Of a DNA stretch of 64,000 bases, positions 2,091 to 63,137 are shown one piece after another; within the stretch, counting starts at the first letter, position 1, and every line of letters begins with the position of its first letter. A program made the translations under genes and the position numbers. The DNA is taken from assembly GCF_037042905.1 (NCBI RefSeq), contig NC_087251.1:46440001-46504000 (forward strand). Reading direction: 5' to 3'. The notes beneath the pieces are model-generated. The model saw only the letters and a list, made by a program, of their open reading frames with translations, did no database searches and had not been told where the DNA came from. This DNA comes from Lytechinus pictus. Its lineage: Eukaryota.

Positions 2091-2184
2091 CTATGGTGAC
2101 AATTAGCCTTGATATGAATAAAAAAACTTTCTCATGAAATGGTCAATGAAAATATTATTTTGCAGTACCGGTATGTAAGATATA

Positions 2185-3004
2185 CAGTGCGTCCCAGAAA
2201 AAAAAAGAAACCGAGATTTATCGATAATTTATCATAACTTAATCACAAATACAATAGACAAGTGACCTACCATTGTAAAGCTTGGAATCTCCTCTTTCAT
2301 CCTAAATTACTTAAATTATTTATCATTCAGGCATGAGTGAGCAAAAAGAATTTGAAGAGGGGATACCAAAGAGTCACTTGGCGAGCTGTACCTGGGTTTC
2401 AAAAATAAATCCGCATTTTTAAGAAATTCAATATCTGCTCTTGAATTTGATACCTCAATTACAGAAAATGGTCAAGAAATAACAAGTTCTGCTTATTTGA
2501 AATAAAACTTGAATTTCAATAATTTCATAAAATGAAGAGGATTTACAGGCTAGCGTTCCGAGTCACTCGACACTCCATTTTGTTGACGATCAGCCATGCA
2601 TTAAGTCTTTTGTTAACTGTGCGATAGCTTCTGTGGAAAACCGGTGAAAACACGTTTATTTAATGAAATTATGGAAATGCAAGGATTGTCTCGAGGGAAC
2701 AGAACTTTTTTACTTCTTGACCATTTTCTGTGATTAAGGTTTCAAATAAAAGAGCAGATATTGAACTTTTTAGGAATATGATTTTCTTTTTGAAATTCAG
2801 ATACCCCCCGCCAAATGAGTTTTTGGTATCCTTTCTTCAAATTGTTTTGCTCACTCATGCATGAATTAGAAATAATCTAAGTAATTTCAGATGAAAGAGG
2901 AGATTCTAAGCTTTACAATGGTAGGTCACTTGTCTATTGTATTTGTGATTTAGTTATGATGAATCATCAATAAATCTCGGTTTCGTTTTTTGTGGGACGC
3001 ACTG
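2185..3004. mobile_element. Tc1/mariner-type MITE with long TIRs
   Basis: TA|CAGTGCGTCCCA ... TGGGACGCACTG|TA; inverted arms run about 300 bp. A degenerate internal copy lies at ~36480-36900. Confidence 0.85.
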
Positions 3005-3217
3005 TAGAGTTTCTAAATATTTTTTGGTAAACCTGAGGGCGGCTCATTTTCAAAAAGGTAATATCACCTAAAAATAATGCATTTGGGAAATATTAGGGGC
3101 GATTTTGTCCTTCATGAAAGCGAAATCGCCTCTTGCGTTCATGTGCAACTCTATTTTCTACACTGATGTGTTTGTATTTGATCATTTCATCCTTCTCTAA
3201 TCTCTATACATGTGCAG

Positions 3218-6300: not shown

Positions 6301-9300
6301 TGAAAATTTGTGAATTACATTTACATTTTATGTATAATTTTTTTTTTATACATGTACTTCTTTCATACTGTTTTTATTTCAAAATCTTAGGGGAGGTATG
6401 GGAGTGATTATTTTTTACTCTGCTTCATCATCAAATGTTTGATTTCAAAGATTTTGGCAAGATGGACTGTATAATAATCATGAACCAAATTGTTATTTTG
6501 AACAGCCCTTCTTGTGGTCCTTGGCTGCTTTGACTTGGTGTTTATCAACTATGCGTATCATAGTACTTTAACCAAGGGAGCTTCCGTTCAACTTGTCTTC
6601 GGGTTTGAGGTATGTATCTTAGAAGCAGGTTTGGAAATGAGTTACATGGTAGGGGCTATTTTTTTCCATATTGGGGCAATTGTGAACATTTGGAGGCTAT
6701 TGCTTTCATTTCATTTCAAGGGCTGCTTTTTTGTGCAATAAGCAATTGTGTTGTTAAAGCATTCATCATTCTGCTTATGTACTGTTTATATAAAATTGAT
6801 TTTCCAAACTTTTGTGAATATTTTCGTGCCAGATCTTGGGGTGACTTGTGAAAATTCAAATTGCTATGTGCTGGATAAATTCTCTATTGATAACATTTTC
6901 CTATTTGAATATTTATCACTACAACTTTTCCAAGCTTTTGACTGCTAGCAGGCTAATACTGTGGTGGTCTATTCACTGAAATTGTTGCATTTCATTATTG
7001 CCAAAATCCAGGGAAAATAAAACAATTTCTTCAAAATGGTTTCTAGTATAAACAAATTTTTTTTTTTCTTTCATTGTGACTTCTTATTGACTTATTGACT
7101 TTCTGTTTCAATGTTTTTTTTCTTTCAGTATGCAATCTAATTGACTGTCTATATTGATGTTTGTTTTCTTTCTTGATACTTTCAGTATGCGATCTTATTG
7201 ACTGTGTTAATCAATGTGTTCTTCAAGTATGTCTTGCACACCATTGATCTACAGAGTGAGAATCCATGGGAAAACAAAGCTGTGTACATGCTTTACACTG
7301 ACCTCATTATGGGTAAGAACTAAAGCATTTCATGCACCCATACAGGATAAATTCTCTCTTGTATACTAGTATTTCATGTGTTATCTGCTATGAAGGAATG
7401 CAAATTCCCGTAATCTACAATGCAAGAATATCTAGGGTGCTTGTAAATTCCATTTCGTAATGTGACTTCACCTTGGAATGAAATATATATTTTTTCATTT
7501 CATTAATTAGTTTGGACTCTAAGATTCTTCCCTTTTTGATTTGTTAGATATTTGAAATTTTGAATCATTGTTTAATCATAAACGACTTCAGATCCAATTT
7601 TGATATGCTGTTAGGGTTTGTCCACTCTAAACCAAGTTAATTGTATATTTTTTTGAGGCAAACACAAATTAAACAAATAGAATTAGATCAAATTATTAGC
7701 CAACTCTCACAATTCTATAGTCAATCCAGTTTTGATTCAATTTATTTATTAGGTAAAACTCATGAGTGAATGTAAATATCAACTGTGGGGATCAAACACC
7801 CTAAAAGCCAGAGGCTTGAAATTTAGGGGTATTCATAACAAATGAAGGACAATGTGGTGATGCTATTAGTACAGCCATTACAAAGGTAATGATACACAAA
7901 ATGAATTACAAAACATGAACTAAACAATTCAAACAAAAAATACATCATGAAAACGTTTTATGTATTGATTACACTGCTGATTTTTGTTCATTTTGTCAAT
8001 GTTTCCCCGGTTTTCTGTTTCTCTTGATTAGGTTTTATCAAAGTGTTTCTTTACACAGCATTTGTGGCCATCATGATCAAGATCCATACATTCCCTCTTT
8101 TTGCCACCAGGCCTATGTACTTAGCCATGAGGTAAGTAACAACTTCATGATTCCATGTTTGTTTCCATGGCAATTGTTCTTTATGAAAAACTTGCACATT
8201 CTGCAAAAAAAAAAAATAATAATTTACCCCCCATCAACAACAACATCAATAATGATGACGATGATGATGATGATGATGGTGATGGTGATGATGATAATGA
8301 TGATGATGATGATGGTGATCATGATGATGAAGATGATCATGATGATGATGATGATGAAGATAATATGAATAATAATTTATAAATCATAATGATAAGAAGA
8401 AGAATGATAGATGAATGAAAATTACAAAGTGAATAAATAAATGAACTAATAAATAAATAAAAGAAATATAAATGGTGATAATGATAAGCAGTATATAAAT
8501 AAATGAATTTATATGAAAACAAGTGCATAAATAAATAAGAAAAAATGAAATCCAAATAGAATACATGAACGGAATGAAAAAGAATATAATGAAATAAAAA
8601 CAGAAAGAACTTTCACATTCCTAACATTTTTGTTGTTGAGATATGCTAATGCTGAGCCATTTAATGCATGTACACACATTTCACTATCAGTGATGATATC
8701 AGAATTTCTCATTTTTTTAATTTCAAACTTAAATAATAATAATAATGATATACAGTTCTTGTATAGCGCATATCACATTATGATTAATGTCTCTATGCGC
8801 TTCCAAAGGACTTAGATATTATTACCCCAGCTGTAGCTTGACAGCCGTAATTACTAAGATTACAGCGCACACGCATTTCAGGGAATAAATTCCTGCCAGG
8901 TACCCATTCACCTCACCTGGGTTGAGTGCAGCACAATGTGGAGGAATTACTTGCTGAAGGAAACTACGCCATGGCTGGGATTTGAACCCATACCCTCTGT
9001 TTCAAAGTCCGGAGACTTATCCACTGGGCCACAATGCTCCACAACTTAAATTGCTTTTCAGTTTTGATTTTGAAAATATAGGTTTCAATTAGAAGTAGGA
9101 TATCCATGAAAATGACTTGGATTCATTGATATGTATTATCATCATTTGTTTGAATACCAGCACATTGAATGATTAAAAATGAGAAGGCATTTTGCAGTAT
9201 TGATTTGCCCATTTGCTTAATTTACATGAATGGTCATACTAATGAAAATTACATTGTATTATTTGAAATTTAAAGTCATTTTGATATTTTTTTTCCTGTT

Positions 9301-12300
9301 TTAATTTAGGTCTTTCAAGAAAGCTGTACATGATGTCATTATGTCTAGAAGAGCCATCCGTAATATGAACACACTGTAAGTCACTTTGGCTTTCATATCA
9401 TTGTAGAAAATAGCCATGGGCGGTGTTTTAAAACGATATTCTTATAGTTACACACAACTTTATATGCGACTGGTGACCCGTTCTTGGTTGCCAAATCGGA
9501 TTCTCACTCGTTATGATTCCAATAGGCTTAAGTTGTAATCTAATAATTGTACATTGATATTTATGTTATTAACAAGTATCTGAATGCAAATTTTATCATT
9601 GCCAAATTTGATTAAGTTTATAGGAAATTCACTCTCATTATGTTAAATCAGGAAGAATTATTTTGGCACAAGAACTGGTCACCAGTCTTGTATAAAATCA
9701 TCTGTAACTTGCAACAGCTCTATGACATATCACCCTGTTCCCTAAAATTGGAAGACAATTTAGATCATTACCGAAACATTTGAGAATAAAAGAAAAACTC
9801 TTCCTGTATTCCTAATACGGATGCCCCAGAATATTCAAAACCCACAAGTATTGCCATTTTCATCATGACCTACCCGGGTTTCGGGATTTGTAGATTTGTC
9901 AGGCGTCCTGTTTTTATTCAATTTTCTGTGCAACCTTTCTGTGAATAATTTGATGAAATAAACACAGTTGCTCCATTTATAACACACAAGCCCCTTCTGT
10001 GTTAGCCTCTTGTCGAGGCCCTGTCGGCTGCTTTCCGAGCGAACATGACAAAGCAAGGGAGAGAGCGAAGCAGAGCGCCGCGAGACAGGGCCTCTTGACA
10101 TCTGACCCGAATTTCACCGACTTTCTTTTGTTTTTTATTGTTTTTACCAATTCACCGACCAAAAACTGGTCGGTGAAAATCATCCAATGAGAGCGCGAGC
10201 TGCTATGACGTCATATTAAATATTCATGAGCTCATCTTGAATGGTGACCCTTGGATTCTTGGCGAAGAGTGACGACGAAATATCAAAGAGCGCTGAATAT
10301 GACTCTAAAATGCTAAATATTGACCGATTTAAGGATTTGCAAGTCGATGAAATTAACTCTGCACTGAAAGGACGAGATGTCTTTGTAAATCTACCCACAG
10401 GATATGGAAAAAATGTAATATTTCATGCGATTCCACCGGTCGAACCGGGGCGTCGATTATCGATCTCCGCTGTGCAGTGCAGTGAGGGAAGCTGGGGTGG
10501 AGTTGCTGGGAGTTGACTCGAGTCTGACCAGCGGCTGAGCAGTATCTCCCGGGAAGTTTCGGGGCGGTGATGGGTCTGTTACGGCCAGTAGTAGTAGTAG
10601 TAGTACCACTACTTGTAGCATTTTGCTGGTTATATCCCCTTTAGTGTCCCGCAATTAAATGAATCCCCTGCAGAATAATGGACTACTATACTATATAGTA
10701 TTCCGAACCCAAAACGAAACAGCTCTGACATTTCATTGGTTTACTCGGTGACCGGTAATATCATGACTCATGTATATTCATTAGGAAGACGTTCCTCATG
10801 AATATATAATTCAGTTCAGATGTCAAGAGGCCCTGGCTCGCACCAGGCCTAATTCGCTTCGCGAATTAGGGAATCCCTCGCTTCGCTCAGGAAGCAGCCG
10901 CCAGGGCCTCAACAAGAGGCTACTTCTGTGTGAGTGTTAAATGTAAAATCCATCTCCATATTTACCAGGTACCCCGATGCCACCGCCGAAGACCTTGCCA
11001 ACACCGACAGCATCTGCATCATCTGCCGAGAGGACATGGTGGCAGCGGAGCCCGGTGCACCGGCAGGAGGCTCCGGAAGCTGCAAGAAGCTTCCTTGCAA
11101 CCACATCTTCCACAGCAGCTGCCTCCGCTCGTGGTTCCAACGTCAGCAGACCTGCCCCACCTGCAGAATGGACGTTCTCAGGCTTTCCGTGGTGGCCGCG
11201 AGCCAGAGGCTCAGGCAGGGGCAGCAGCAGCAGCAGGGGGTGGGGCAGCAGGGACAGGCGGGGGTGGGTCTGGGACAACAAGGCAATGGACAAGTGCCAC
11301 CTGTACCAGGGCAAGGTATGCTATATTTGTGATTGTCTAGAAACTCAAGGGGGTATTTTCATGGTTAATGTAAAGATTTGCTTATACTCCAAGTTGCATA
11401 TGGTGTAGAGTATTTTACAGCACTTTTCAGATCATCATCAAGGTATGCAACCGTTTGTGTGCTATTTATTATATAGTTGCCAGTCTTCAGATTTTTTGCC
11501 TCATTTCAGGTTTTTAATGGATTAAAACTCATAGCACTTATGGGGCCTTTGCATGTTCAGGCTTTTCCAAGGACCAGTGACTAAGACTAACTGGCATTCA
11601 TGCAATTACATCACATGTTAAATTTACTTTGGACTTACTGGTATGCATGAATTGAATTCAACCATCGACTCTTTCTTAAATAGTGTCCTGTTTGTAAATA
11701 TACATTTCTATTGAAAGTTCTTTAATCACACTTTGCAATAAGAGATAGTGAGCATTATGTAAAATAGATCATGAAACATGTCCATAATGTCACATACATC
11801 AAAAGAATGACAATGGCTACCAATAATATTCCACTTTTCAGGCAAAAAATTGTTATTTTTTATTTATGGATGCTTCTTTTGGCAAATTACAGCCTAAATC
11901 TGCAATTATTAATAAGATTTAGATTGCAATGAATGGGGATTTCCAGGGCTCCTTGTTCAAGTTTCTCGGGCTATTTTGAGCATTTTTTGGCAAAATTGTC
12001 CCTTTCCCTCGTGTAATTTTTTCCTTGCCTTGGTCATCATATTTGGGCTTACCCAATCAAGCTCTATGATTTTTCTCCACTCCATGGGTAGCATTCCAAC
12101 AAAAGCACCAAGTAAATAATCAAGAGTGTGTGGTTTACTAATATTGCAATTGATTTTGCTTATGTTTTGACAGGTATGCCCCCTTTTCCACCAGGCTTCC
12201 AGTTTTGGCTTCCTCAATATCAGGGAGGAGTGCCCCCCTTTCCTCAGCCCCCTGTACCCCCTCAACCGTCATCATCCTCAACTACTCAACCAGGAACTTC

Positions 12301-17333: not shown

Positions 17334-17807
17334 GATTTCCTTGGGTTACAGAGGTTACAGAGACTCAGTATTGAAACATCAACTTCACACAAGATTTCCT
17401 TGATCATCTTCTCATTCCTCCCCTTACGAAGATGAATATTACATCGCCATGGCAATGCTGCATGAAACTGTTGACAAGAACAGCTTTGGCGTGGTTGCTG
17501 ATCTGATTTGTGAAGTTATTCTGCTTTTATTTTTTTTCTTCAGGTAATCCTGCCTTAGTGAGCAGAGCATGGAAGATTTGTGAACAGTATTTTGAAATTT
17601 ATGTTTATTTTAATAAGGATGGCAGCGTGCTTATCATTGCATATTGAGCTGAGATTATTGGGTAGTTTGTATTTATATCATTAATTTTGAGAGTCCAACA
17701 TCACAATAATATGACCATTGTTTCATTATATTTGCCCTAAAAAAATCATGAACAACTCTTTAATGTAATGAATAACCATTACATTTGCATTACATTTTAG
17801 GCTTATG

Positions 17808-18236
17808 CAGACCTGCCAACCAGTACGTTTTAGCCGTATTTAGTACGTTTTTGCAACCAAAATACGGCAGTACGTTTTTTCTTTGAAAAATACTTTTTTT
17901 TTTTTTAAAACTAAATTGTAATTTATTGAGAAAAATAATATCTATATGTCTCTATTTCATAAAACGTGCACAAATATGGTTATTAGATCAATGTAATTTC
18001 AGGTAACTTGTTTTTTTTTTCAATCATTTTGTTCAAACCAGGGTGAAGATATACACATGTTTTAATGTTGTTTTTTCATCTGCAAGAGCAGTGCGCATTT
18101 TAGCTTGCATGCAGCCTGAGCGCCGCGATGAGCGAGTGCGCCAAGCATTTTATTATGAAATACACTTTTTGGGGGAAAAATACAGTTTTTTTTATCACAG
18201 AATACAGTTTTTCATTCCCAGAGGTTGGCAGGTCTG
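17808..18236. mobile_element. MITE with 6-bp TSD, downstream of the SYVN1 stop
   Basis: TIR CAGACCTGCCAACC / GGTTGGCAGGTCTG; TSD CTTATG on both sides. Confidence 0.85.
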
Positions 18237-19418: not shown

Positions 19419-20612
19419 TGGGGTATTGCAAGAAACTCGCAATCAATTGCAAGTCAATTTTGGGTCAAAAAATCAATCACAAATCTGGCAAATAATTGCA
19501 AATTTGTACTTGATTGCTGTTCTGCTTCTTTTAACAAGAAGTTAAAATTAATTTGCTCTAGTTACAAGTGATATATCAATTGCAAGTTTGCATCAGAAAT
19601 TGGCAATCGATTGTAAATGATTTCTTGCATTACGATTGCTGGTCTGCTTCTTTTAACAAGATGTTAAAATTAATTTGCTCTAGTTACAAGTAATATATCA
19701 ATTGCAAGTTTGCATCAGAAATTGGCGATCGATTGTAAATGATTTCTTGCATTACGATTGCTGGTCTGCTTCTTTTAACAGAAGTTAAAATTAATTTGCT
19801 CTAGTTACAAGTGATATATCAATTGCAAGCTTGCATCAGAAATTGGCAATCGATTGTAAATGATTTCTTGCATTGCGATTGCTGGTCTGCTTCTTTTAAC
19901 AAGATGTTAAAATTAATTTGCTCTAGTTACAAGTGATATATCAATTGCAAGTTTGCATCAGAAATTGGCGATCGATTGTAAATGATTTCTTGCATTATGA
20001 TTGCTGGTCTGCTTCTTTTAACAAGAAGTTAAAATCAATTTGCTCTAGTTACAAGTGATATATCAATTGCAAGTTTGCATCAGAAATTGGCGATCGATTG
20101 TAAATGATTTCTTGCATTACGATTGCTGGTCTGCTTCTTTTAACAAGAAGTTAAAATTAATTTGCTCTAGTTACAAGTGATATCAATTGCAAGTTTGCAT
20201 CAGAAATTGGTGATCAATTGTAAATGATTTCTTGCGTTACGATTGCTGGTCTGCTTCTTTTAACAAGAAGTTAAAATTAATTTGCTCTAGTTACAAGTGA
20301 TATATCAATTGCAAGTTTGCATCAGAAATTGGCGATCGATTGTAAATGATTTCTTGCATTACGATTGCTGGTCTGCTTCTTTTAACAAGAAGTTAAAATT
20401 AATTTGCTCTAGTTACAAGTGACATCAATTGCAAGTTTGCATCAGAAATTGGCAATCGATTGTAAATGATTTCTTGCATTACAATTGCTGGTCTGCTACT
20501 TTTAACAAGAATTTAAAATTAGTTTGCTCTAGTTACAAGTGATATATCAATTGCAAGTTTGCATCAGAATTCGGCAATCGATCGATTGTAAATGATTTCT
20601 TGCATTACCCCC
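19419..20612. repeat. MITE containing a tandem array of 9 x ~122-bp units (19512-20608)
   Basis: Unit starts at 19512, 19634, 19756, 19877, 19999, 20121, 20241, 20363, 20483; ends TGGGGTATTGCAAGAAA / TTTCTTGCATTACCCCC. Confidence 0.92.
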
Positions 20613-22550: not shown

Positions 22551-24038
22551 AAGGTCGAGTCCTCCCCCAGAAAAATGTTGATTTGAATTAATAGAGAAAA
22601 ATCAAACTAGTATAACACTGAAATAAGAAAGATGGCATTTTGAAGTTTCGCTTATTTTTCACAAAACAGTGATATACACAACTCATTGACATGCACATGA
22701 GTCAGTCGATGTCCATCACTATTTCTTTTGCTTTATATAATTATAAAATATTTCATTTTTGTCTCACCTGCATAGCAGAGTGAGACTATAGGCGCCGCTT
22801 TTCCGACGGCGACGGCGGCGGCGGCGGCGTCAACACCAAATCTTAACCTGAGGTTAAGTTTTTGAAATGACAGCATAACTTAGAAAGTGTATGGACCTAG
22901 TTCATGAAACTTGGCCATAAGGTTAATCAAGTATTACTGAACATCCTGCCTGAGTTTCATGTCACATGACCAAGGTCAAAGGTCATTTAGGGTCAATGAA
23001 CTTAGACCATGTTGGGGGAATCAACATCAAAATCTTAACCTAAGGTTAAGTTTTTGAAATGTCATCATAACTTAGAAAATATATGGACCTAGTTCATGAA
23101 ACTTATACATAAGGTTAATCAAGTATCACTGAACATCCTGCATGAGTTTCACGTCACATGACCAAGGTCAAAGGTCATTTAGGGTCAATGAACTTTGGCC
23201 GAATTGGGGGTATCTATTGAATTACCATCATAACTTTGAAAGTTTATGGATCTGATTCATGAAACTTGGACATAATAGTAATCAAGTATTACTGAACATC
23301 CTGTGCAAGTTTCAGGTCACATGATCAAGGTCAAAGGTCATTTAGGGTCAATGAACTTTGGCCAAATTGGGGTATTTGTTGAATTACAGCCATAAATTTG
23401 AAAGTGTGTTGGTCTAGTTCATAAAACTTGGACATAATAGTAATCAAGTATCACTGAACATCCTGTGCGAGTTTCAGGTCACATGATCAAGGTCAAAGGT
23501 CATGTAAGGTCAAAGAACTTTGGCCACGTTGGGGGTATTTGTTGAATTGCCATCATATCTCTATAAGTATATTGGTCTAGTTCATAAAACGTGGAAATAA
23601 GAGTAACCAAGTATCACTGAACATCTTGTGCGAGTTATAGTAGTTTTCAAAATCAGCACTGCTGCTATATTGAATCGCGTGATGCAGGTGAGACGGCCAG
23701 AGGCATTCCACTTGTTTACATATTTGACCAACTTGACTGAACCATATAGTATTAAACAATGCTCTTTCCACATGTTCAGGGAGGAATTAATCGTTGGTTT
23801 CACTTGACAATGAGGAGAAAATTAGAATATTTCATATAATAAAATACAAAAGAAATAGTGGATGACGTCAAAAGTCTCCTCATTTGTATACCAAGCAGGA
23901 TGTGCATATCACTGTTTTGTAAAATTAAGAGAAACTTTAAAATGTCATAACTTTACTATTGTCAGTGTTATGCTTGTTGGCTTTTTCTCTTTTAGTTCAA
24001 TTAAACTTTTTGTTGGCCGGGGTGGACTTGTCCTTTAA
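22551..24038. mobile_element. Kolobok-like MITE interrupted by a Helentron-associated insertion
   Basis: Right end GGGGTGGACTTGTCCT|TTAA; body matches the intact copy at 53851-54446 in reverse orientation. Confidence 0.7.
22761..23714 (+). mobile_element. Helentron-associated non-autonomous element (HINE/DINE-1/Tsp/pearl-like) with internal tandem repeats
   Basis: Inserted in a T run; subTIR GTCTCACCTGCAT (22761) / ATGCAGGTGAGAC (23682); 5' fold-back GTGAGAC; (GGC)n microsatellite; about 4.5 units of 192/163/162/163 bp with AAGGTCAAAGGTCA. Confidence 0.8.
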
Positions 24039-32886: not shown

Positions 32887-33729
32887 GTATTTGATCTTCT
32901 TTGATAAAGTTAGCAATATAGTATGATTCATACGCATGTATACAAATTGAGGTTTTTGATAAAATACAAGATAACTTGTCATCGTGGAACATGTTATTGA
33001 ATTATTTGTCAGCAGTATTGTCAACCCATCATGAGAAATGCAATTCATTTTTCTTTCTAAAGAGAGTTCATTATTTCATTTAATCAGTGGAGATCGATCG
33101 GTATTGCTATATATAATTGAAGTTTCACTTTCGTGTATTTATTATATTTCCTATCAGTAGAACTGTTTCCTATATCGGTCATATAACGTAAAACCTGCTC
33201 AATTAATATTTGGTGAATGACATGAAAAATTAGCCCTGGAGAGCATTTCATCAACATTTGGCATCCTAAAAGTTTTCAGATCCAACCACTTTTCTAAAGT
33301 CATGATTGGCTGAGATGCGCTGGGGAGTGTTTCATGAAAGGGCCAGTAAGATGTTTTATCCAACCAAGTATGATTTATCCGACAGTTACCTTAGGAATTC
33401 AGCTTCTCAGCCAATCTAAATTGAGGAAAATTGTTGGATCCGACAAATTGTCAGAATACAAATAATGATGAAATTATCCTGGGGAGCGTTTCGTCAACAT
33501 TTTTTGTCCGACAAGTTGTCAGATTTGACAACTTTCCTTGATTCCGATTGACTGAGAGGCACTGTTACCAAGGCATCTCTCACATAAAACAGGACTTGTC
33601 AGATGAAACGCCTGACAAGTCCTTTTATGAGATGCTCCCCAGTTTGTGAGATATTTCCTATTTTTGAGCAAGTGCCATGAGCGCCCAGCTGAGGCGGAAA
33701 ACGGCGCTTTACAAGGACCCATCGTCATC

Positions 33730-34157
33730 CAGACCTGCCAACCAGTACGTTTTCGGCGTATTTAGTACGTTTTTGCAACCAAAATACGGAAGTACGTTTT
33801 TTCTTTTAAAAATATGTTTTTGTAAAAAAAAAATCGTAATTTATTGAGAAAAATCATCTCTATATGTCTCTATTTCATAGAACGTACACAAATATGGTTA
33901 TTAGATCAATGTAATTTCAGGTAACTTGTTTTTTTTTCCAATATTTTTGTTAAAACCAGGGTGAAATATACACATGTTTCAATGTCTTTTTTTTTTTCAT
34001 CTGCAAGAGCAGTGCGCATTTTAGCTTGCATGCAGCTTGAGCGCCGCGATGAGTGAGTGCGCCACGTATTTTATTATGAAATACACGTTTTGGGGGAAAA
34101 ATACAGTTTTTTTTATCACAGAATACAATTTTTCATTCCCAGAGGTTGGCAGGTCTG
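33730..34157. mobile_element. MITE with 6-bp TSD, near-identical to 17808-18236
   Basis: Same TIR CAGACCTGCCAACC; TSD GTCATC on both sides. Confidence 0.85.
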
Positions 34158-44399: not shown

Positions 44400-44945
44400 C
44401 GGCCAGGTCCTGAAGCTTGACGTCATGAAGTGAAGCTAGGCTGTTCATTCATCCATCTTCTGGTCTATGGGTAGGGCAGTGATTGGTTGATTTTTCCAAC
44501 AGTGTCCCTTTGGCTAAACAAAGTGTTTCCTATATCCAGCGTGGAACAAGTTTGGAAAATTTTGTTGTGTTCTCACTGCTGTCTGTCAGATTTGACATTG
44601 CATGTTTTGGTAGATTGTTCCAACTCTCCATGACCCTTTGGTTAAAGAAGTGGTTTCCTCCATCCAGTCTAGAACAAGTTTGGGAAATTTTGTTGGATGC
44701 TGTATTTGGCATTGCATGTTTTGGTAGATTGTTCCAACTCTCCATGACCCTTTGGTTAAAGAAGTGGTTTCCTCCATCCAGTCTAGAACAAGTTTGGGAA
44801 ATTTTGTTGGATGCTGTATTTGGCATTGCATGTTTTGGTAGATTGTTCCAACTCTCCATGACCCTTTGGTTAAAGAAGTGGTTTCCTCCATCCAGTTTAG
44901 AACAAGTTTGGGAAATTTTATTGCGTGCCGTCTCTGAAATTTGAC
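44400..44945 (-). mobile_element. CR1 LINE 3' end with 3 x 114-bp tandem duplication (44596-44922)
   Basis: Unit starts at 44596, 44710, 44824; peptide NHFFNQRVMESWNNLP is the CR1 ORF2 C-terminal motif. Confidence 0.8.
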
Positions 44946-46683: not shown

Positions 46684-46856
46684 GGGGCCTGTTGCATAAA
46701 AGTTACTATCATGGTAACCTTCCCATCCAATTGTAACTACCCTCGGGTAACTACCATGGAATCCTTGATTTTGATTGGCTGCTGACCATTGTTACCATGG
46801 TAGTTACCATTGGATAGCAAAGTTACCATGATAGTAACTTTTATGCAGTGGGCCCC
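46684..46856. mobile_element. MITE (copy at 62481-62640)
   Basis: TIR GGGGCCTGTTGCATAAAAGTTACTATCATGGTAAC / GTTACCATGATAGTAACTTTTATGCAGTGGGCCCC. Confidence 0.8.
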
Positions 46857-52015: not shown

Positions 52016-53850
52016 GACATAGCGTGAATCGCGAGCTCAAACTTTTGGACATTTCATGTATGAAGACATGAAAAGTAAGCATTATGAGCAGTGTTTGTTA
52101 TTATGAAAAAGATGTGTGTACAATAGAATTGACGCGAGCGCGAAGCACGAGCTGAAATTTTTAATATACTGACCATAAAGGAACCTGATAAGGACAGCTT
52201 TTATAGTGACTGGTGAATAGTATACATATCTCACCAACTGAATAATGCGAGCGCGAAGCGCGAGCTGAAAATTTGTGATTCCAATCTGAAAACTAGACAT
52301 TCTAAGCACTTTTTTGTAACCAAGGACAGAATGAGTACCTTACTAAACAAAAATTGATGAGAGCGCGAAGCGCAAGCCAAAAGTTATGATTTTCTTACTT
52401 AAAATGAATCATGTTTTACTTCAAAAAAGGTTTTTCATTTTGAAAAAGGGCACATTTCATTAAAAAAAAGGCCTTTTCCATTTTGAAAAAGGTGCATTTT
52501 TCCTACGGGGAATTTGGTGGGGCAAGTGTCCCCCCCCCCCCTGCCCCCCCCCCCCCCCGTTCCGCTCCCCTGGTCTGGTATAAATGTTTAAAGCCCCTTT
52601 GTTACCCAACTGATTGATGCACAGTGCTGGATACAACACATATGTATGTTGATATTCTTTATTATCTTCAATAGTATCGAAATGTGTTTCGTAGAATTTA
52701 CATGAATTTACAAATTTACAATTTTTTAACATGCTATAAAACTATGTTTTGTAAAACAAGGCGAAAATCAAAAATGCCACGTACACCTTTCTTTTTTCTT
52801 TTTTTGCTTGTCAAATTTTTTCAGCACCCCCATAAAAAATCGTTCCCATGGCCCTGCTCTCTCTCTCTCTCTCTCTCTCTTTTATTTAAATCTTTTATCT
52901 TTATTTGGAGGCGAAGCTTAGCGATCGATTTGTAAAGTATTCTTTCAAAAATCTACGAAACGTATTTCGGTATTTAAATCCCCAAAAATCGAATAAAAAG
53001 AGCATAAAAAGGAGCGACCTGAGCTTTTTCAATAATACATTTTTAGTTGGCAAAAAAATTATGTGACTTTTGTGGTAAGTTGCCACCCCATCCCTCATCA
53101 AAATAGTCTAGCCCCGCCCCTGAAGTCACGTACGATCAGCGGTTGGTTCGGTGTAAAATGACAAGGGTTAAAGTTTCAAAGATCTTATATCCCCACGCAA
53201 CGCCCCTGTATAATGGCTAATGTCATATAAAAGGGGGTACTAGTAAATAGTTCAAAGGAAGGTGTTATAATAACAGGCGCTAATCGGGGGCGGTTGAGGG
53301 ACATTGCCCACCCCCGGAAAAAGATGAAAAGGGAGGAAGGGAAAGGTAAGGGGAAACAGGGGCGGCGGATCGTATTTTCGTTTTTTTTTTTGGGGGGGGG
53401 GAGCAAAACCAAAAAGTGCACTTAGGCCTTTATTATGTCAAACTGGGCATTTTGATGCAAACAGACATTTTCTCTATGAGATAATCCTCTGCGTGAAGTA
53501 GTTGTGTGTTTTGTAGATTAAGTTGAGCAAAGTTCTTTTGAAGTGATTTCTGATTTAGGCTTTATTTTTCGCGAGGGAGCATAGCGAGCGAGCTAACGGT
53601 TTGGAAAAAAAAATTGAAGTTGTAAGACTCGATTTTTTGTCATTTTATGGCGCTATTTACCATGTTTACAGTTAAAAGGGCTCAAACTTTTGAACATTTC
53701 ATGTAAGACATGAAAATAAAACATTCCGAGGAGGTTTTGTAATAATGAAAAAGGTGTGTGTCTAACTAGAGCGTTAACGCCAGTTAATCGACTGTTTGAA
53801 GTGACTCAGGAGGGTGTGCAGCGCGAGCTGAAAATGAGTTATATTATTAA

Positions 53851-54446
53851 AGGACAAGTCCACCCCAACAAAAATTGATTTGAATAAAAATAGAAAATCC
53901 AATTAGCATAACACTGAAAATTTCATCAAAATCGGATGTAAAATAAGAAAGTTATGACATTTCAAAGTTTTGCTTATTTTCACAAAACAGTTATATGCTC
54001 ATCCTGGTGGGTATGCAAATGAGGAGACTGATATCGTCATCCACTCACTATTTATTTTATATTTTATTATATGAAATAGGGAATATTCTATTTTTCTCCT
54101 CATTGTCAAGTGAAACAACGATCAATTCCTCCCTGAACATGTGGAATGAGCATTGTTTAATACTATATGATTCAGTCAAGTTGGTTGTTATTGTCAAATC
54201 TATAAAAAATGAAATATTGTATACTAGTAATTAAAACAATAAAAAACAAAAGAAATAGTGAGTGAGGAACATCATCGACTGTCTCATTTGAGTTGTGCAT
54301 ATCACTGTTTTATGAAAAATAAGCAAAACTTTGAAATGTCATAACTTTTTTATTTTACATCCGATTTCGATGAAATTTTCAGTATTTTGCTAGTTTGATT
54401 TTTCTCTTTTTATTTAAATCAACATTTTCTGGGGTGGACTTGACCT
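53851..54446. mobile_element. Kolobok-like MITE, intact
   Basis: TTAA|AGGACAAGTCCACCCC ... GGGGTGGACTTGACCT|TTAA; long imperfect TIRs. Confidence 0.85.
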
Positions 54447-55729
54447 TTAATATCTGAAAACTTTTTTGTAACAAATTAGGTCTCAAAATAATTAATTAAT
54501 AATCTATATGATTTTTTTTCGATTTAGAACTAAACTTGACATACTAAACACCTTTTTTAAATCATGAACAGGATGGGTATATAACTAAACAATAAAATGT
54601 GAATGAAAAGACAGTCCAAGGATTCTTTGTGTGAAAATTCATGAAGTATACCTATAATGAAGTGGGTGCCTATCTCGATGAAACAAAAAAAAAACTCGAA
54701 TTGCGAGCAAAATAATTTATACAAATTGACTTAAGCAGATTATTATCTTACTCAAGGCAATGTGAGATCGAGCGAAATTTTTAGTTGTAAATAATGAAAT
54801 GATTTTTTTTTACTTTCCAATTATGCCTCTTCCCTCGTTTTATTCACCTCTCCCCCTGGGGGTGGGGCTCTAGCAGCCCCCCTGTCTACACCAACGGGCA
54901 AAGATATTGTGAATTGTGTGAAATATGGAAAATAAATCAATATTTTTTAGGTAATCTTATATATGCACTATTTTATTTCTGCAAAAAGTATTTATCAGGC
55001 TTACAAGAAGTTCACATTTCAGAAGAAAAACATGAAAAATAATGATTACAAGTCATGTCCAACTTTAGATTTAATAGAGTGAGTTGGTTTCATTGATTTG
55101 ATTAGTTTAATTAGAATTTAGAAGAAATTTTGATTTCTGGTTTATTTAATTTTTTCCGTTGCGTTTTTGATGAATCTAAAGATTTAAAACTGTAATATGT
55201 AGGCCTACACTACGACAAATATTTGTACAAGTTCATAGAAGTGATTAAGATCAGTATTTTTTGTATAAAATAATCATGGTGATCTGTTCCTTTTGATAAA
55301 TGAATACACATTTCATTTACAAGAAAAAACACGATTTAACCGCCCAAAAAGTCTCATCTCTGTGATTTATTATATTCTTACAGTGGAAAGTATATATCTT
55401 GTGCGATTAAGTATGCATAATAACTAATACAATCATCATACACAAATACTTCCTTATGCGACCTAATGCTTTAAGTCACATTTTAAAACATTCCAAAAGG
55501 CATTTTCTGGGTTTTTCCGTTAATGGCCCCAAAGGCATTGATCATTACATTAATTGAACTTGAAGATTGCCTTGACCTTCTAGAGAGCTTTGCCGGGGAC
55601 ATTTGAACATTTAGATGACTATTTTACTTACCTGGTTATCACCAACCTGATGTTTGAAATCAATTCCGTGAAGTTTCCATCCTTTCCTCTTTTACGCAGT
55701 AATATCAGGAAAATCAAATCGACGTAGGC

Positions 55730-58202: not shown

Positions 58203-61200
58203 ATGGTAAGCAAAGATACGAATAAGTCTTGTATTTTCGTTAAAGTTGTATTCTAAATTTGATTTTCATGTTGCTGTGCCCTGTATATGTTGATTAACAC
58301 TTAATGAATCATTTGTCGTTTAATTCAAGCATGCACTAATTTTTTTGTTAGCTGGTAGTTTTAGCTTTCGCAGCCGACCCGAAGGCAGCCGCGCGGGCGT
58401 GTGGATAGTGGAACTTGTGCTTATTTCGTTAGGGGTTGCTAAAGCGCAGTTGCGCCCCGTACCGCAGACAGTCCTCACTCAGCTAATTACCGGTACCTCA
58501 ACTTCTCAAGATGGTTCGTGCATGCTCCACTCCACTTCACTACCAACTACCGCTACAGCCTAGTCTTGAGGACGCAATGATGATGATTTTTAAAATAATG
58601 AAATATACTTCTTCATCATTGACGTCTTGACACTCTTCCCCCTGTCGCATAAGAGAAGAACCATAATAAAGATGGATTTCCCTCGGAAATCCATCTTTAG
58701 AAACAAAAATCACTTTAATTGTATTGATTTCATTAATTTTCACACCTTCCTACGCCTAATGCGTAGGAAGGTTTTAAAAATTATAACATGAAAATGTGAA
58801 AAATTTAAGGTTTCTTACCTAACTGATGCCGGATAAACACCTCGATCCACATGTAAACAACGTAAGTACAATAGCGTCGACCCTTGAACCGCTTATGTAT
58901 GACGTACTTCCGGCTAGCGATGCCGTTCTGATGAATAATTTATAGAAAAAAAATATTATTTCGCAAATGTTAAAATGTATCACGTAAATTAAAAATAATT
59001 GTCAGTTTCATACCAATTATTTTTAATTACGTGATAAATTTTAACATTTGCGAAATAATTTTTTTTTCTATAAATTATTCATCAGAACGGCATCGCTAGC
59101 CAGAAGTACGTCATACATAAGCGGTTCAAGGGTCGACGCTATTGTACTTACGTTGTTTACATGTGGATCGAGGTGTTTACTCAGCATCAGTTAGGTAAGA
59201 AACCTTAAATTTTTCACATTTTCATGTTATAATTTTTAAAACCTTCCTACGCATTAGGCGTAGGAAGGTGTGAAAATTAATGAAATCAATACAATTAAAG
59301 TGATTTTTGTTTCTAAAGATGGATTTCCGAGGGAAATCCATCTTTATTATGGTTCTTCTCTTATGCGACAGGGGGAAGAGTGTCAAGATGTCAATGATGA
59401 AGAAGTATATTTCATTATTTTAAAAATCATCATCATTGCGTCCTCAAGACTAGCTACAGCCTACACTACGCTCCACCTACCCGAAAGTCAAGGCCAGGTC
59501 AAAAACTCGCTCTGGCCAAAGGTGGGAAAAGAATAGACAGCTGGCAGCCGTCTGTTTCGAGGAGTTTTTTAACATTTTTTTTTTTTTTAATTTCTCCTCG
59601 TACACAGACGGCTCGCTAGCGTGCAGCCACCATTAGGGGACTTGCAATGCAAAATCCCCCCGTCGGGGCTCTTCAATTTTTGTCTTTAATGAATAAAAAT
59701 TTTGAAAATTAACGCGACCAAAATGCAAATTAATATTCCCTCTTGGCATTAATTGCCAAAAAACGGAGAAAAATCAAGGTAAAAGGAACAAAAACAGTGA
59801 CTTACCTCGGCTGTCGCGCAAATTCACTTCCCCGTTTTATCCGATCTTAAGTACATAAACATATGGCCATTGAGTCCCCTGTACAGATCGCGCTAGAACT
59901 TCGGTCTCTGTATTTGGTGAGTGAAGCCAACGGAGTTCAGCTGAACAACCAACATAACACAGAGACCGAAGCTTTTGGTCTAGGAAAAGAATGCATATTT
60001 ATTGTAAAAATCCTAATTCCTACACCGAAAGGCGAAACTAGCTTAAAAAGAATAAGGGCACCACAATGAGAAATCTAATTTCTTACTTTTCATCCTAATT
60101 CACTCCATATCCATCCTCCGGTTAGCCTCAAAATTGGTGATTTAGAGACAACATCGAGTTCCTCACACGTAATAATAATGATATAGCCATAGGTACGTAT
60201 ATTTACCCAGGGATTAGGGAAGCCACTTCACTTCAGTTCTGAAAACTGTTCTCCCAGCGGGCCCTGCTATTATTATAAATAATTCACTGCCGATTTCAAA
60301 CATCGTATGTGCGAGGGTCCGAGCTCAGACCCTCGCTTACTAACTTACTATCGGATACAGCTCGCTCCTTGCCCTTTGTTGTAAACATCTCAAAATCTGT
60401 GATTTGAAGCTGGTTCCCAGTTTCCCACACGTATTAATCTAGTGCCAAATCCAAAATGGCGACGCGAATTGTGCATGACCCGTGCGCAATTCACGCTCTG
60501 GAACTGCGATGTCTCGTAATATGGGTCTTGCGAGCAGGGCTGGGTGGCTTCTGAACCGAACTTTTGTCATTCGGAGTAACTAGAGAACTGAAAATTAGGT
60601 CTGAAAAAGGGGGTCATCAAAGCGGCACATCCCCGTACCACCAATATATGTGAGTGCTCCCCCCCCCCCCGGCCCGATAATGAATCGAGCAAGACCCGTG
60701 CGTGTTTTTTACATAGCCGGTACCGATTACGCCTAGATCAACTGATTTCCGGAGACCCGTTTTTGATGTGGTCCGTTCCAGAGCATTGCATTTTTGGCAA
60801 TCGTTGATCCAAGAGCCGCTCCGGAGACCCTCATTTTAAGACCAAGATTTAGTTCCAGAGCCCCCTATTTTCGAGTTGGCGCGACACATAGGTATCATAT
60901 TATAATTTGAGTACCCCCCCCCCCCTCCGGTACTCTACACCTACCTGAACATCAAGGTACAAAACTCGCTTCGCTAGTCTGAGTGACAAATGTGTCACTT
61001 TATGGGGAGAAAATATAAAACCCCTGCAACAAAATGACCTTACAATTCATTTATAACAACTCGTCTTACATTTCACAAAGTTTCACATTTTTTTCCACGT
61101 TTCTATCAGTCTCAAAATTGGTGATTTAGAGGCAGTATCAGTTTCCTCACACATATTAATTCACTGCTGATTCCAAAACATCGCAAACACAAATTGCGCA

Positions 61201-63137
61201 TGCGCGGAAATCGCAGCTCAAGACAATTCATGAATATTCATGAGTAGGACTATAGATCGAGATCTGATGCAAATGCGAAACGATCCCGTTTAATTTCATT
61301 CATTTTGCCCAAATAACACTTGGTCTAATTAGACCAAATGGTTATTGGACCAAATGGCTATTGAACCAACTGGCTATTAGACAAAATGGTGAGTGGACAA
61401 AAAGGCAATTAGACCATGTGGATATTCGACGAACTGATGTAGACCAATGGTAGACCATTTGTACTTTCCTCTTTGTTTTTCAATTTTTTATGTCGCATGC
61501 CTGTGAGGGCGAAGTCGCCCATAGTCATATAGACCTTACAATGTATGTATTTCCTATGCTGATTTGAATTTTGTTCTGTTGTCATACAATAGCCTTGTTT
61601 AATATGATTAAAATGCATGTTTTTATCAAGTTGGCATGCCTATGTTAGAAAAGCACTCAATCTTCAATATGGTTTCCAGTGTGATTTTTAAGTCTGCTTT
61701 CCTATGCTTTTCATTGACAACACTTTCATCTCTTTTTGTTGTTGTTCTAGGCTCACACAATTTTGCTCATTCAGCCCGATGCCCCCATGTCCAAAACGTA
61801 TGCAGACTATAGCAGTATCAAAGAGTGCATGGAAGGTAAGTACAGAATGTATTTATTTTCATCCATTTCTATGGCTCATTGCCCCCCCCCCCTCCTTTTG
61901 AATCTTGAACTTATGCATATTCGATTGCTGTACGTGTGTGAGAAACTGATTCAAACTCAGGTTTAAAGTTGTGGTTTAAGTATGGATAGCCAATTGTTAC
62001 ATAAATCACTAACAGTAGAGATATCATACTTCAGCTTATTTGGCTCTCAAATCATTCATAATTGTCAAGGAAGTATATATAGATGATTGTCTTCACCATT
62101 GATGGATCAGGAAAGAGCACAGTAAACATAAGAAACATACAACTTAATAAAAATTTTGATACTTTTGGCTTCCCATACTTAAACCACAACTTTAAACCTG
62201 TTATCAGAATACGGGCCATTGAGTTTGAACTAGCACGTCCGAAGCTTTTATATGATATACAATTTGTCTAAGTTGATCAACAATAACCCTCACAAATGTA
62301 GACGCAATGGGAAGCTGATGACCCCTTACATATTGCTGGTCTTGAGAACAAGATTAATATGTTTGGCCTTCTGTTGGCGACACTTGGGACTTACTATATT
62401 ATGGTAGCTACCGTATTGATAGAGCTAGCCAATGCGTTTATGGTTACCATAATTGTAAGTCTGCAAGGAATATGGCACCTGGGCCCGTTGCATAAAAGTT
62501 ACTATTATGGTGTAACTTTGCCATCTAATGGTAACTAGTATGGTAATGATGATCAACAGCCAATCAGAATCAAGGATTCCATGCAAGTTACCATTGGATG
62601 GCAAAGTTACCATAATGGTAACTTTTATGCAACAGGGCTCAAATACGCCCTTGCATTCTCCAGTACTTTAAGCATAAATAACTATGGTAATATTTTCTTA
62701 CTTCGGCTGCAGGCAATGGCATGTGGCCAATCAAGGGCCAGTCAGATGATACGTAGATCTAAGGGGGCCTTCTCTACCACAGAAGTCCGGGGTCTGATTC
62801 CCAGCATGGCCCATGAGCAAGGAAGTTTATCTACATTGCTCTTTTATCTTGCATCAAGTAAATGCAAAATGCTATGTGCAGTATTGATACCAATCTGTGC
62901 ACATTTTAATAAAAAAAAATGAATTGATAAAATGAATGATTCATAATTACCACCGAGTCAGATGACATAATACTTCAGCAGTAATAAATGTCAATGTGGT
63001 TTGCTCTGCTCCTTAGGTATTTGCCGGATCTTCGAAGAGCATCTTAAAACGTGTCATCCGAGTAGTCCATCAATCACATATGATATCAGCGAGCTGTTTG
63101 AATTCATCGATAACATGACAGATATTTCATGCCTGGT
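58203..63137 (+). CDS. ERH: Enhancer of rudimentary homolog, 3'-partial. Candidate ATG exon end 58203-58205, exons 61751-61835 and 63017-63137
   Basis: [69 protein letters not shown]. Intron positions match ERH. AAAATG|GTAAGC at 58203 fits the ATG-only first coding exon (alternative at 61386). Confidence 0.85.
58561..59452. mobile_element. Fold-back (palindromic) non-autonomous Academ/AcademH-like element
   Basis: TAGTCTTGAGGACGC..GCGTCCTCAAGACTA; ~440-bp arms around a 12-nt loop (59002-59013); exact 9-bp TSD GCTACAGCC (58552-58560, 59453-59461). Confidence 0.9.
61320..61462. repeat. Short tandem (TA)GACCAAATGG-type repeat
   Basis: About 8 degenerate 15-17-bp units preceded by the inverted TTGGTCTA. 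Confidence 0.65.
61751..61835 (+). CDS. ERH: ERH coding exon 2
   Basis: ctag|GCT CAC ACA ATT ... GAA G|gtaagt. Confidence 0.95.
63017..63137 (+). CDS. ERH: ERH coding exon 3
   Basis: ttag|GT ATT TGC ... CTG GT|gtaagt; contains PSITYDIS. Confidence 0.95.

Follow-up and report, generated by a model that had tools for sequence, protein, structure and literature searches.

A 920-bp element in an intron of the synoviolin gene SYVN1 of the sea urchin Lytechinus pictus is best read as a non-autonomous DNA transposon of the AcademH type. We assign a probability of roughly 0.88 to the reading that it is a decayed copy of an amplified non-autonomous family, derived by internal deletion from an AcademH-type cut-and-paste transposon with a helicase and a convergent transposase, and mobilised in trans. 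The element lies in a stretch of 64,000 nucleotides which was analysed as a whole and is called the window here. Passages in the published literature place AcademH as a lineage within the Academ superfamily (PMC10045372, PMC10799480), state that it encodes a helicase and makes target site duplications (TSDs) of 9 or 10 bp, and in discussion tie this TSD of 9-10 bp to the helicase (PMC10045372). A preliminary description of this DNA had already proposed an internal-deletion derivative of AcademH-like type with a RecQ helicase stub. This proposal is supported by the kinship of the stub with helicases in TAG…CTA elements that have 9-bp TSDs and a convergent DUF6589 gene, as well as by a phylogenetic tree. 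The general properties that it gave for AcademH, a RecQ-like SF2 helicase and TSDs of 9-10 bp, agree with the passages of PMC10045372 as regards the helicase and the duplication of 9 or 10 bp.

The borders of the element, its terminal inverted repeats (TIRs) and the repeats within its ends are the following.

10003..10922, + strand: AcademH-type non-autonomous DNA transposon, 920 bp, TAG…CTA, delimited by TIRs, TSD and the breaks of other copies at 10003 and 10922
9994..10002, + strand: left copy of the TSD, 9 bp CTTCTGTGT, exact repeat
10923..10931, + strand: right copy of the TSD, 9 bp CTTCTGTGT, which together with 10932-10968 makes up the last 46 nt of the host intron
10003..10043, + strand: outer left TIR, 41 nt, 90% against the right arm
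10882..10922, - strand: outer right TIR, 41 nt
10080..10113, + strand: inner left TIR, 34 nt, 91%
10808..10841, - strand: inner right TIR, 34 nt
10015..10094, unstranded: inverted pair within the left end, 11-bp arms 10015-10025 and 10084-10094, as long in 0 of 100 shuffles
10827..10910, unstranded: inverted pair within the right end, arms 10827-10837 and 10900-10910, enclosing a hairpin with a 10-bp stem

TAG..CTA ends, two-tier TIRs and a perfect 9-bp TSD, all named in the preliminary description, were found as described there, with borders at 10003 and 10922. When flank lengths of 5-13 nt were compared at these borders, an exact repeat was found at 9 nt only; two given places in the window share an exact 9-mer with a chance of 3.2e-5 (508 of 15,755,847 pairs). 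The TIRs appear in two tiers because a motif pair is repeated within each end: an 11-bp inverted pair starts 13 nt from the tip in both ends (0/100 shuffles), and the same design is present in 7 of the 16 ends of eight related elements (0/100 shuffles). The hairpin of the right end has its 10-bp stem at 10848-10870, with a fold z of -4.2 at this end vs -1.2 at the left end. Between the two ends the inner block is offset by 4 nt, and by 11-12 nt in one of 14 relatives (L066). The repeated end motifs are plausibly candidate transposase-binding sites.

The window contains other repeats, but no second copy of the 920-bp element was found in it. A list covering the whole window holds only two TAG/CTA pairs that combine 14-nt inverted ends with a TSD of 8-10 bp, namely 10003-10922 and 58561-59452. 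The latter is an 892-bp TAG…CTA element with an exact 9-bp TSD (GCTACAGCC) and forms a near-perfect palindrome (97% over its length); no long ORF is listed for it, no similarity to the 920-bp element was found, and it may be a foldback element of Academ type. MITE-like repeats, palindromic or present in two copies, occur at 2183-3006, 17805-18236, 33727-34157, 46684-46856, 53845-54452 and 62480-62641, several of them in or near SYVN1, and tandem arrays at 19512-20608 (122 bp units), 22830-23636 (163-192 bp) and 44590-44923 (114 bp). Rfam gave one weak match in the window, located outside the 920-bp element and under its cut-off.

Between its two ends, the element carries the remnant of a helicase gene preceded by promoter-like words.

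10184..10213, + strand: promoter-like words upstream of the helicase ATG, CCAAT and TGACGTCA, candidate function
10241..10435, + strand: helicase remnant, first 65 codons, with RecQ motif 0 and motif I (GKN, not GKS)
10436..10469, + strand: 34-nt interruption shifting the reading frame, placed by alignment to relatives, exact edges uncertain
10470..10688, + strand: helicase remnant, second part, with low-complexity linker, motif Ia (10617-10649) and about 12 further codons; stops at 10536 and 10656

The ORF from the ATG at 10241 contains RecQ motif 0 and the sequence LPTGYGK, in agreement with the Q-motif and Walker A previously noted in it; motif I reads GKN vs GKS in most relatives. The Pfam model DEAD scores 19.1 bits on this ORF, under the cut-off of 26, and the 65-codon stub is similar to the N-terminal part of RecQ-like helicases, a large family with 162 representatives at E <= 0.001 and a best identity of 71-72%. 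The preliminary description let the ORF break off at about 10436. This holds for the reading frame, in which likeness to the relatives ends at residue 65, base 10435, but not for the remnant, which continues in the next frame to about 10688: after the interruption of 34 nt the helicase match restarts with LCS, a low-complexity linker such as the close relatives typically have between motifs I and Ia, and motif Ia itself. Against a profile of 17 relatives, with the query left out, the motif Ia segment scores 10.8 bits, and none of 1000 dinucleotide shuffles scored as high (best 8.0). The GC-rich middle thus represents helicase sequence on the + strand. The suggestion that 10440-10650 might be the 5' end of a convergent second ORF is rejected on account of this score and of transposase probes without a match: six probes from three related transposase genes detected no transposase trace in the 920-bp element (best E 0.64). 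On sequence grounds, an autonomous member is ruled out, the absence of a transposase being expected for a non-autonomous derivative, and the broken helicase remnant is predicted to make no working enzyme. At codons 2, 4, 18 and 21 most reads of the family differ from this copy, and since the family reads agree with close relatives at codons 2, 4 and 21, this copy has decayed since its insertion.

Copies of the element elsewhere were assessed with four sequencing runs mapped on positions 9200-11700 of the window, with evaluation of 15 of 47 joints and 19 of 294 loose ends. Run X11 is DNA-like and stems from a close relative (its exon differs from the window at 5 of 227 bases, and its intron is about 90% alike). 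Runs X1 and X23 belong to one organism; the exon contig of X1 shows no differences from the window, and X23 is RNA. In X11, 45 contigs run from the element into mixed flanks at 10003 (agreement 0.36), and 33 do so at 10922 (agreement 0.41); in the RNA run X23, 17 reads break at 10003 and 31 at 10922, and X1 shares these break points with X23. Many copies hence end at the same two bases, which identifies the element as a member of an amplified family. Depth over the element in X11 is about 140-230 times the depth of flank or exon, a ratio that is not a copy number; the family probably comprises hundreds of copies. A 577-nt contig of run X9 spans 10107-10677, so that the interrupted helicase region is common to other copies. 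Joints such as 10087 to 10835, where contigs and six RNA reads link the left end straight to the right end (among the 15 of 47 joints), suggest that the family also has ends-only members of about 170 bp. A 356-nt contig of X11 covers 9670-10000 with final 31 letters that do not align on the TIR. An empty site in the close relative would account for this, but so might a filled site, from which a tail of about the same length is expected.

Related helicases provide the context of complete elements. A profile scan of metagenome contigs yielded 80 loci with related helicases. Forty loci were examined for ends, and 12 of them have TAG…CTA TIRs with an exact 9-bp TSD; L025 was added as the 13th by inspection, and no exact 9-bp pair was found in the other 27. 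The 13 loci represent 11 different sites, as L037, L040 and L041 are one insertion. Nine of the 13 TIR-verified elements are 5.7-10.2 kb long and enclose a DUF6589-like gene on the opposite strand; among all 80 loci, DUF6589-like matches occur in 32, always opposite to the helicase strand. In the three elements scanned, the second gene matches Pfam DUF6589 and shows the conserved acidic motifs GD, DWH and D-x3-E; we take DUF6589 to be the Academ transposase. The distance of motif I from the left end is 382 nt in the 920-bp element and 232-431 nt in most of the TIR-verified two-gene elements. This convergent two-gene layout with the helicase near one end is the layout expected of AcademH. The direct autonomous partner of the 920-bp element was not found among these loci, the TIR-verified elements being distant and from other animals. 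With the 65-aa stub as sole query, no locus was confirmed among 269 metagenome candidates. A search of viral contigs with the TIR pattern gave no match, and a match of the inner-TIR pattern in a bacterial contig comprised a bare 18 nt and was taken as chance.

Three short helicase-only derivatives from other animals were identified among these loci: a 1367-bp one with exact 9-bp TSD (L037/L040/L041; L037:3457-4823), one of 907 bp with an 8-bp repeat and ends offset by 11-12 nt (L066:2365-3271), and one of 772 bp whose 9-bp repeat has one mismatch (L064:480-1251). They share with the 920-bp element the TAGCCT… ends, the helicase 5' part near one end and the lack of a transposase match; unlike it, they have other deletion points, and their end sequence is unrelated past the first 6-7 bases.

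The following course of events would account for these observations. In the parent, a RecQ-like helicase gene would have begun about 240 nt from one end, with a transposase gene directed toward it from the other. Through an internal deletion, all detectable transposase sequence and the remainder of the helicase would then have been lost, so that both ends and roughly 450 nt from the start of the helicase coding sequence persisted. We infer that an intact element elsewhere supplied the transposase, and perhaps the helicase, in trans, and that the supplied enzyme bound the repeated motifs in each end. On cut-and-paste into the SYVN1 intron, the target would have been cut with a 9-nt stagger and the duplication formed by repair, and enzymes from intact elements would have amplified the short derivative in trans.

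The origin of the helicase fragment bears directly on this scheme, as a Pack-MULE-like or MITE-like element of another superfamily could have picked up the 5' exon of a RecQ gene of the host and owe its movement to an unrelated transposase. Mutator-like elements have a 9-bp TSD and long TIRs, so these features of the 920-bp element are also compatible with them, and it has no transposase of its own. Furthermore, sea-urchin proteins annotated as RecQ-like (P0156-P0158) are among the best long relatives of the stub, one of them conserved at 90% or more between two Lytechinus species. The 65-aa stub scores 50-76 bits with its nearest relatives, which are short ORFs without genomic context, 32-42 bits with sea-urchin "RecQ-like" proteins lacking RQC and HRDC domains, 19-30 bits with TIR-verified elements, which are distant and from other animals, 13-30 bits with a cellular set of fungal, amoebozoan and bacterial RecQs, and at most 24 bits with solved RecQ structures. 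Scores alone would thus not decide between TIR-verified elements and cellular RecQs as kin of the remnant. A quick tree (LG+G4, 69 rows, the window row with about 45% filled columns) does so within the limits of its sampling, which comprised neither BLM, WRN and RECQL1/4/5 of sea urchins nor P0041, P0161 and P0223, in which no motif I was parsed. Nineteen cellular RecQ rows are split from the other 50 with an SH-aLRT of 99, the remnant falls into a group with sea-urchin proteins supported at 97, and forcing it among the sampled cellular RecQs is rejected (AU p = 0.018). The remnant accordingly appears to belong with element-borne helicases, apart from the sampled cellular RecQs. This also bears on the question, raised in the preliminary description, of whether the peptide matches a host RecQ better than Academ helicases, and speaks against a host-gene origin of the internal fragment as in Pack-MULE-like capture, in a tree that holds no sea-urchin cellular RecQ. 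P0156-P0158 lack RQC and HRDC domains and stand on the transposon side of the tree, and the 920-bp element agrees with the two-gene elements in its TAG…CTA ends, its 9-bp TSD and the place where its helicase starts. Capture of a host gene is therefore highly improbable in our view. In the tree, the transposon-helicase side holds P0156, P0157, P0158, P0173, P0174, P0190 and P0206, which databases annotate as RecQ-, RecS- or WRN-like proteins of marine invertebrates and which may be element-borne or domesticated. Transposon helicases appear to account for some of the "RecQ-like" gene models in these animals.

Besides the AcademH origin, possible roles and movements of the element have to be weighed. 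The surrounding parts of the host gene are as follows.

9310..9375, + strand: SYVN1 exon preceding the intron, joined in frame to the exon at 10969 as in the database protein
9376..10968, + strand: host SYVN1 intron, GTAAGT…TACCAG, 1593 nt, containing the element
10969..11315, + strand: RING-H2 exon of SYVN1 (synoviolin/HRD1)

The downstream exon belongs to synoviolin, with 77 of 77 residues from 10970 identical to the L. pictus protein (100%), of which 13 coding segments map along the window. As previously described, 46 nt separate the end of the element (10922) from the start of the RING exon (10969). At this distance the element could weaken the branch point or offer cryptic acceptors and so alter SYVN1 splicing: the acceptor is near and has a short pyrimidine tract, and the right end contains a stable hairpin as well as AG dinucleotides at 10915 and 10917. 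However, the last 46 intron nt, including candidate branch-like words at 10931-10949, are outside the element, and owing to the target duplication they are the same as before the insertion. The database protein uses the 9375/10969 junction in frame, and the window part of a 686-nt contig from run X1 starts exactly at 10969, without differences and with a depth matching the previous exon, although the animals sequenced are not known to have the insertion. Thus an effect on splicing, as envisaged in the preliminary description, is unsupported so far and very unlikely; the element appears to leave the splice signals of the intron intact, and its insertion probably has next to no effect on how SYVN1 is spliced. 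Elsewhere in the gene, a short direct duplication of a SYVN1 acceptor and first exon bases (7124-7185) lies just upstream of the exon at 7186 and possibly gives an alternative acceptor. A further proposal is that selection has maintained the helicase 5' region as a functioning promoter module, which family members transcribe and which could feed regulation of the autonomous element. CCAAT- and CRE-like words precede the helicase ATG, with the CCAAT 182 nt from the left end; another CCAAT is found on the - strand 184 nt from the right end. In the RNA run X23, with strand set from the SYVN1 exons, mean helicase-sense depth is 18.7 over 10208-10711 vs 3.2 near the ends, the antisense depth being flat (22 vs 29). 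These data hint that some family members, or longer relatives, are transcribed from their helicase promoter. Yet they come from one run with 370 reads, most of them from other copies or longer relatives since 228 are under 95% alike to this copy, and no clustered transcript starts or ends were found among them. In addition, the reading frame is broken, and L037, L064 and L066 retain the region but were found by searching for it, so that they show no selection. We consider a selected promoter module improbable.

Near-identical sequences in another organism raise the possibility that a gene-less AcademH derivative recently crossed species horizontally between marine animals. Run X9, assigned to a different organism, has the element at about 98-100% identity and at a low depth of about 21, apparently made up of two variants of about 11 each, with one unique 140-nt flank, and shows no depth in 18 of 18 bins outside the element, SYVN1 exons included; the closer relative of run X11 retains the SYVN1 exon and intron. 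Two other runs of the X9 sample contain next to none of the words of the element, and contamination by a high-copy repeat or read filtering would also explain the pattern. Such a transfer seems doubtful to us and, if true, would be of moderate interest only, as one has reportedly been described for an Academ element by Zhang et al. 2016.

Under the preferred reading, an internally deleted AcademH derivative mobilised in trans, a little-studied transposon lineage gains an abundant non-autonomous family, found in a model sea urchin. With its many copies and fixed ends, such a family would aid in finding the autonomous partner and in testing the role of the helicase in transposition. In the literature on Academ/AcademH, sea urchin and Lytechinus, no paper on this element family was found; Repbase was outside this search, so the family may be described there.

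Compared with known systems, the remnant is homologous to cellular RecQs (RECQ1, BLM, RECQ5, WRN, RECQL4, bacterial RecQ) in motif 0, motif I and motif Ia, whereas it stands on a separate branch of the tree, its best structure score is 24 bits compared with 50-76 for the nearest relatives, and the one cellular RecQ compared lacks the low-complexity linker between motifs I and Ia. Kolobok transposons target TTAA. The 920-bp element, in contrast, has a 9-bp TSD, and its animal host, a helicase start beside one end and relatives with convergent genes likewise depart from KolobokH. What it shares with KolobokH is the nature of the latter as a DNA transposon with a RecQ helicase, as stated in passages of PMC9587614. 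With AcademH, a lineage reportedly treated in Kojima 2020 (Mob DNA 11:15), the agreement is as follows. The TIRs bound a multi-copy mobile unit, an exact 9-bp TSD is found here and in 13 of 40 related loci, the RecQ-like SF2 helicase of an element-borne lineage is present as a broken remnant, and the relatives have a second, convergent gene. Unlike AcademH, this copy measures 920 bp only, shows no trace of an Academ-type DDE transposase, and has a helicase that is cut after motif Ia and broken. The best reading is that the 920-bp element belongs to the known transposon type AcademH, of which it is one broken, gene-less copy.
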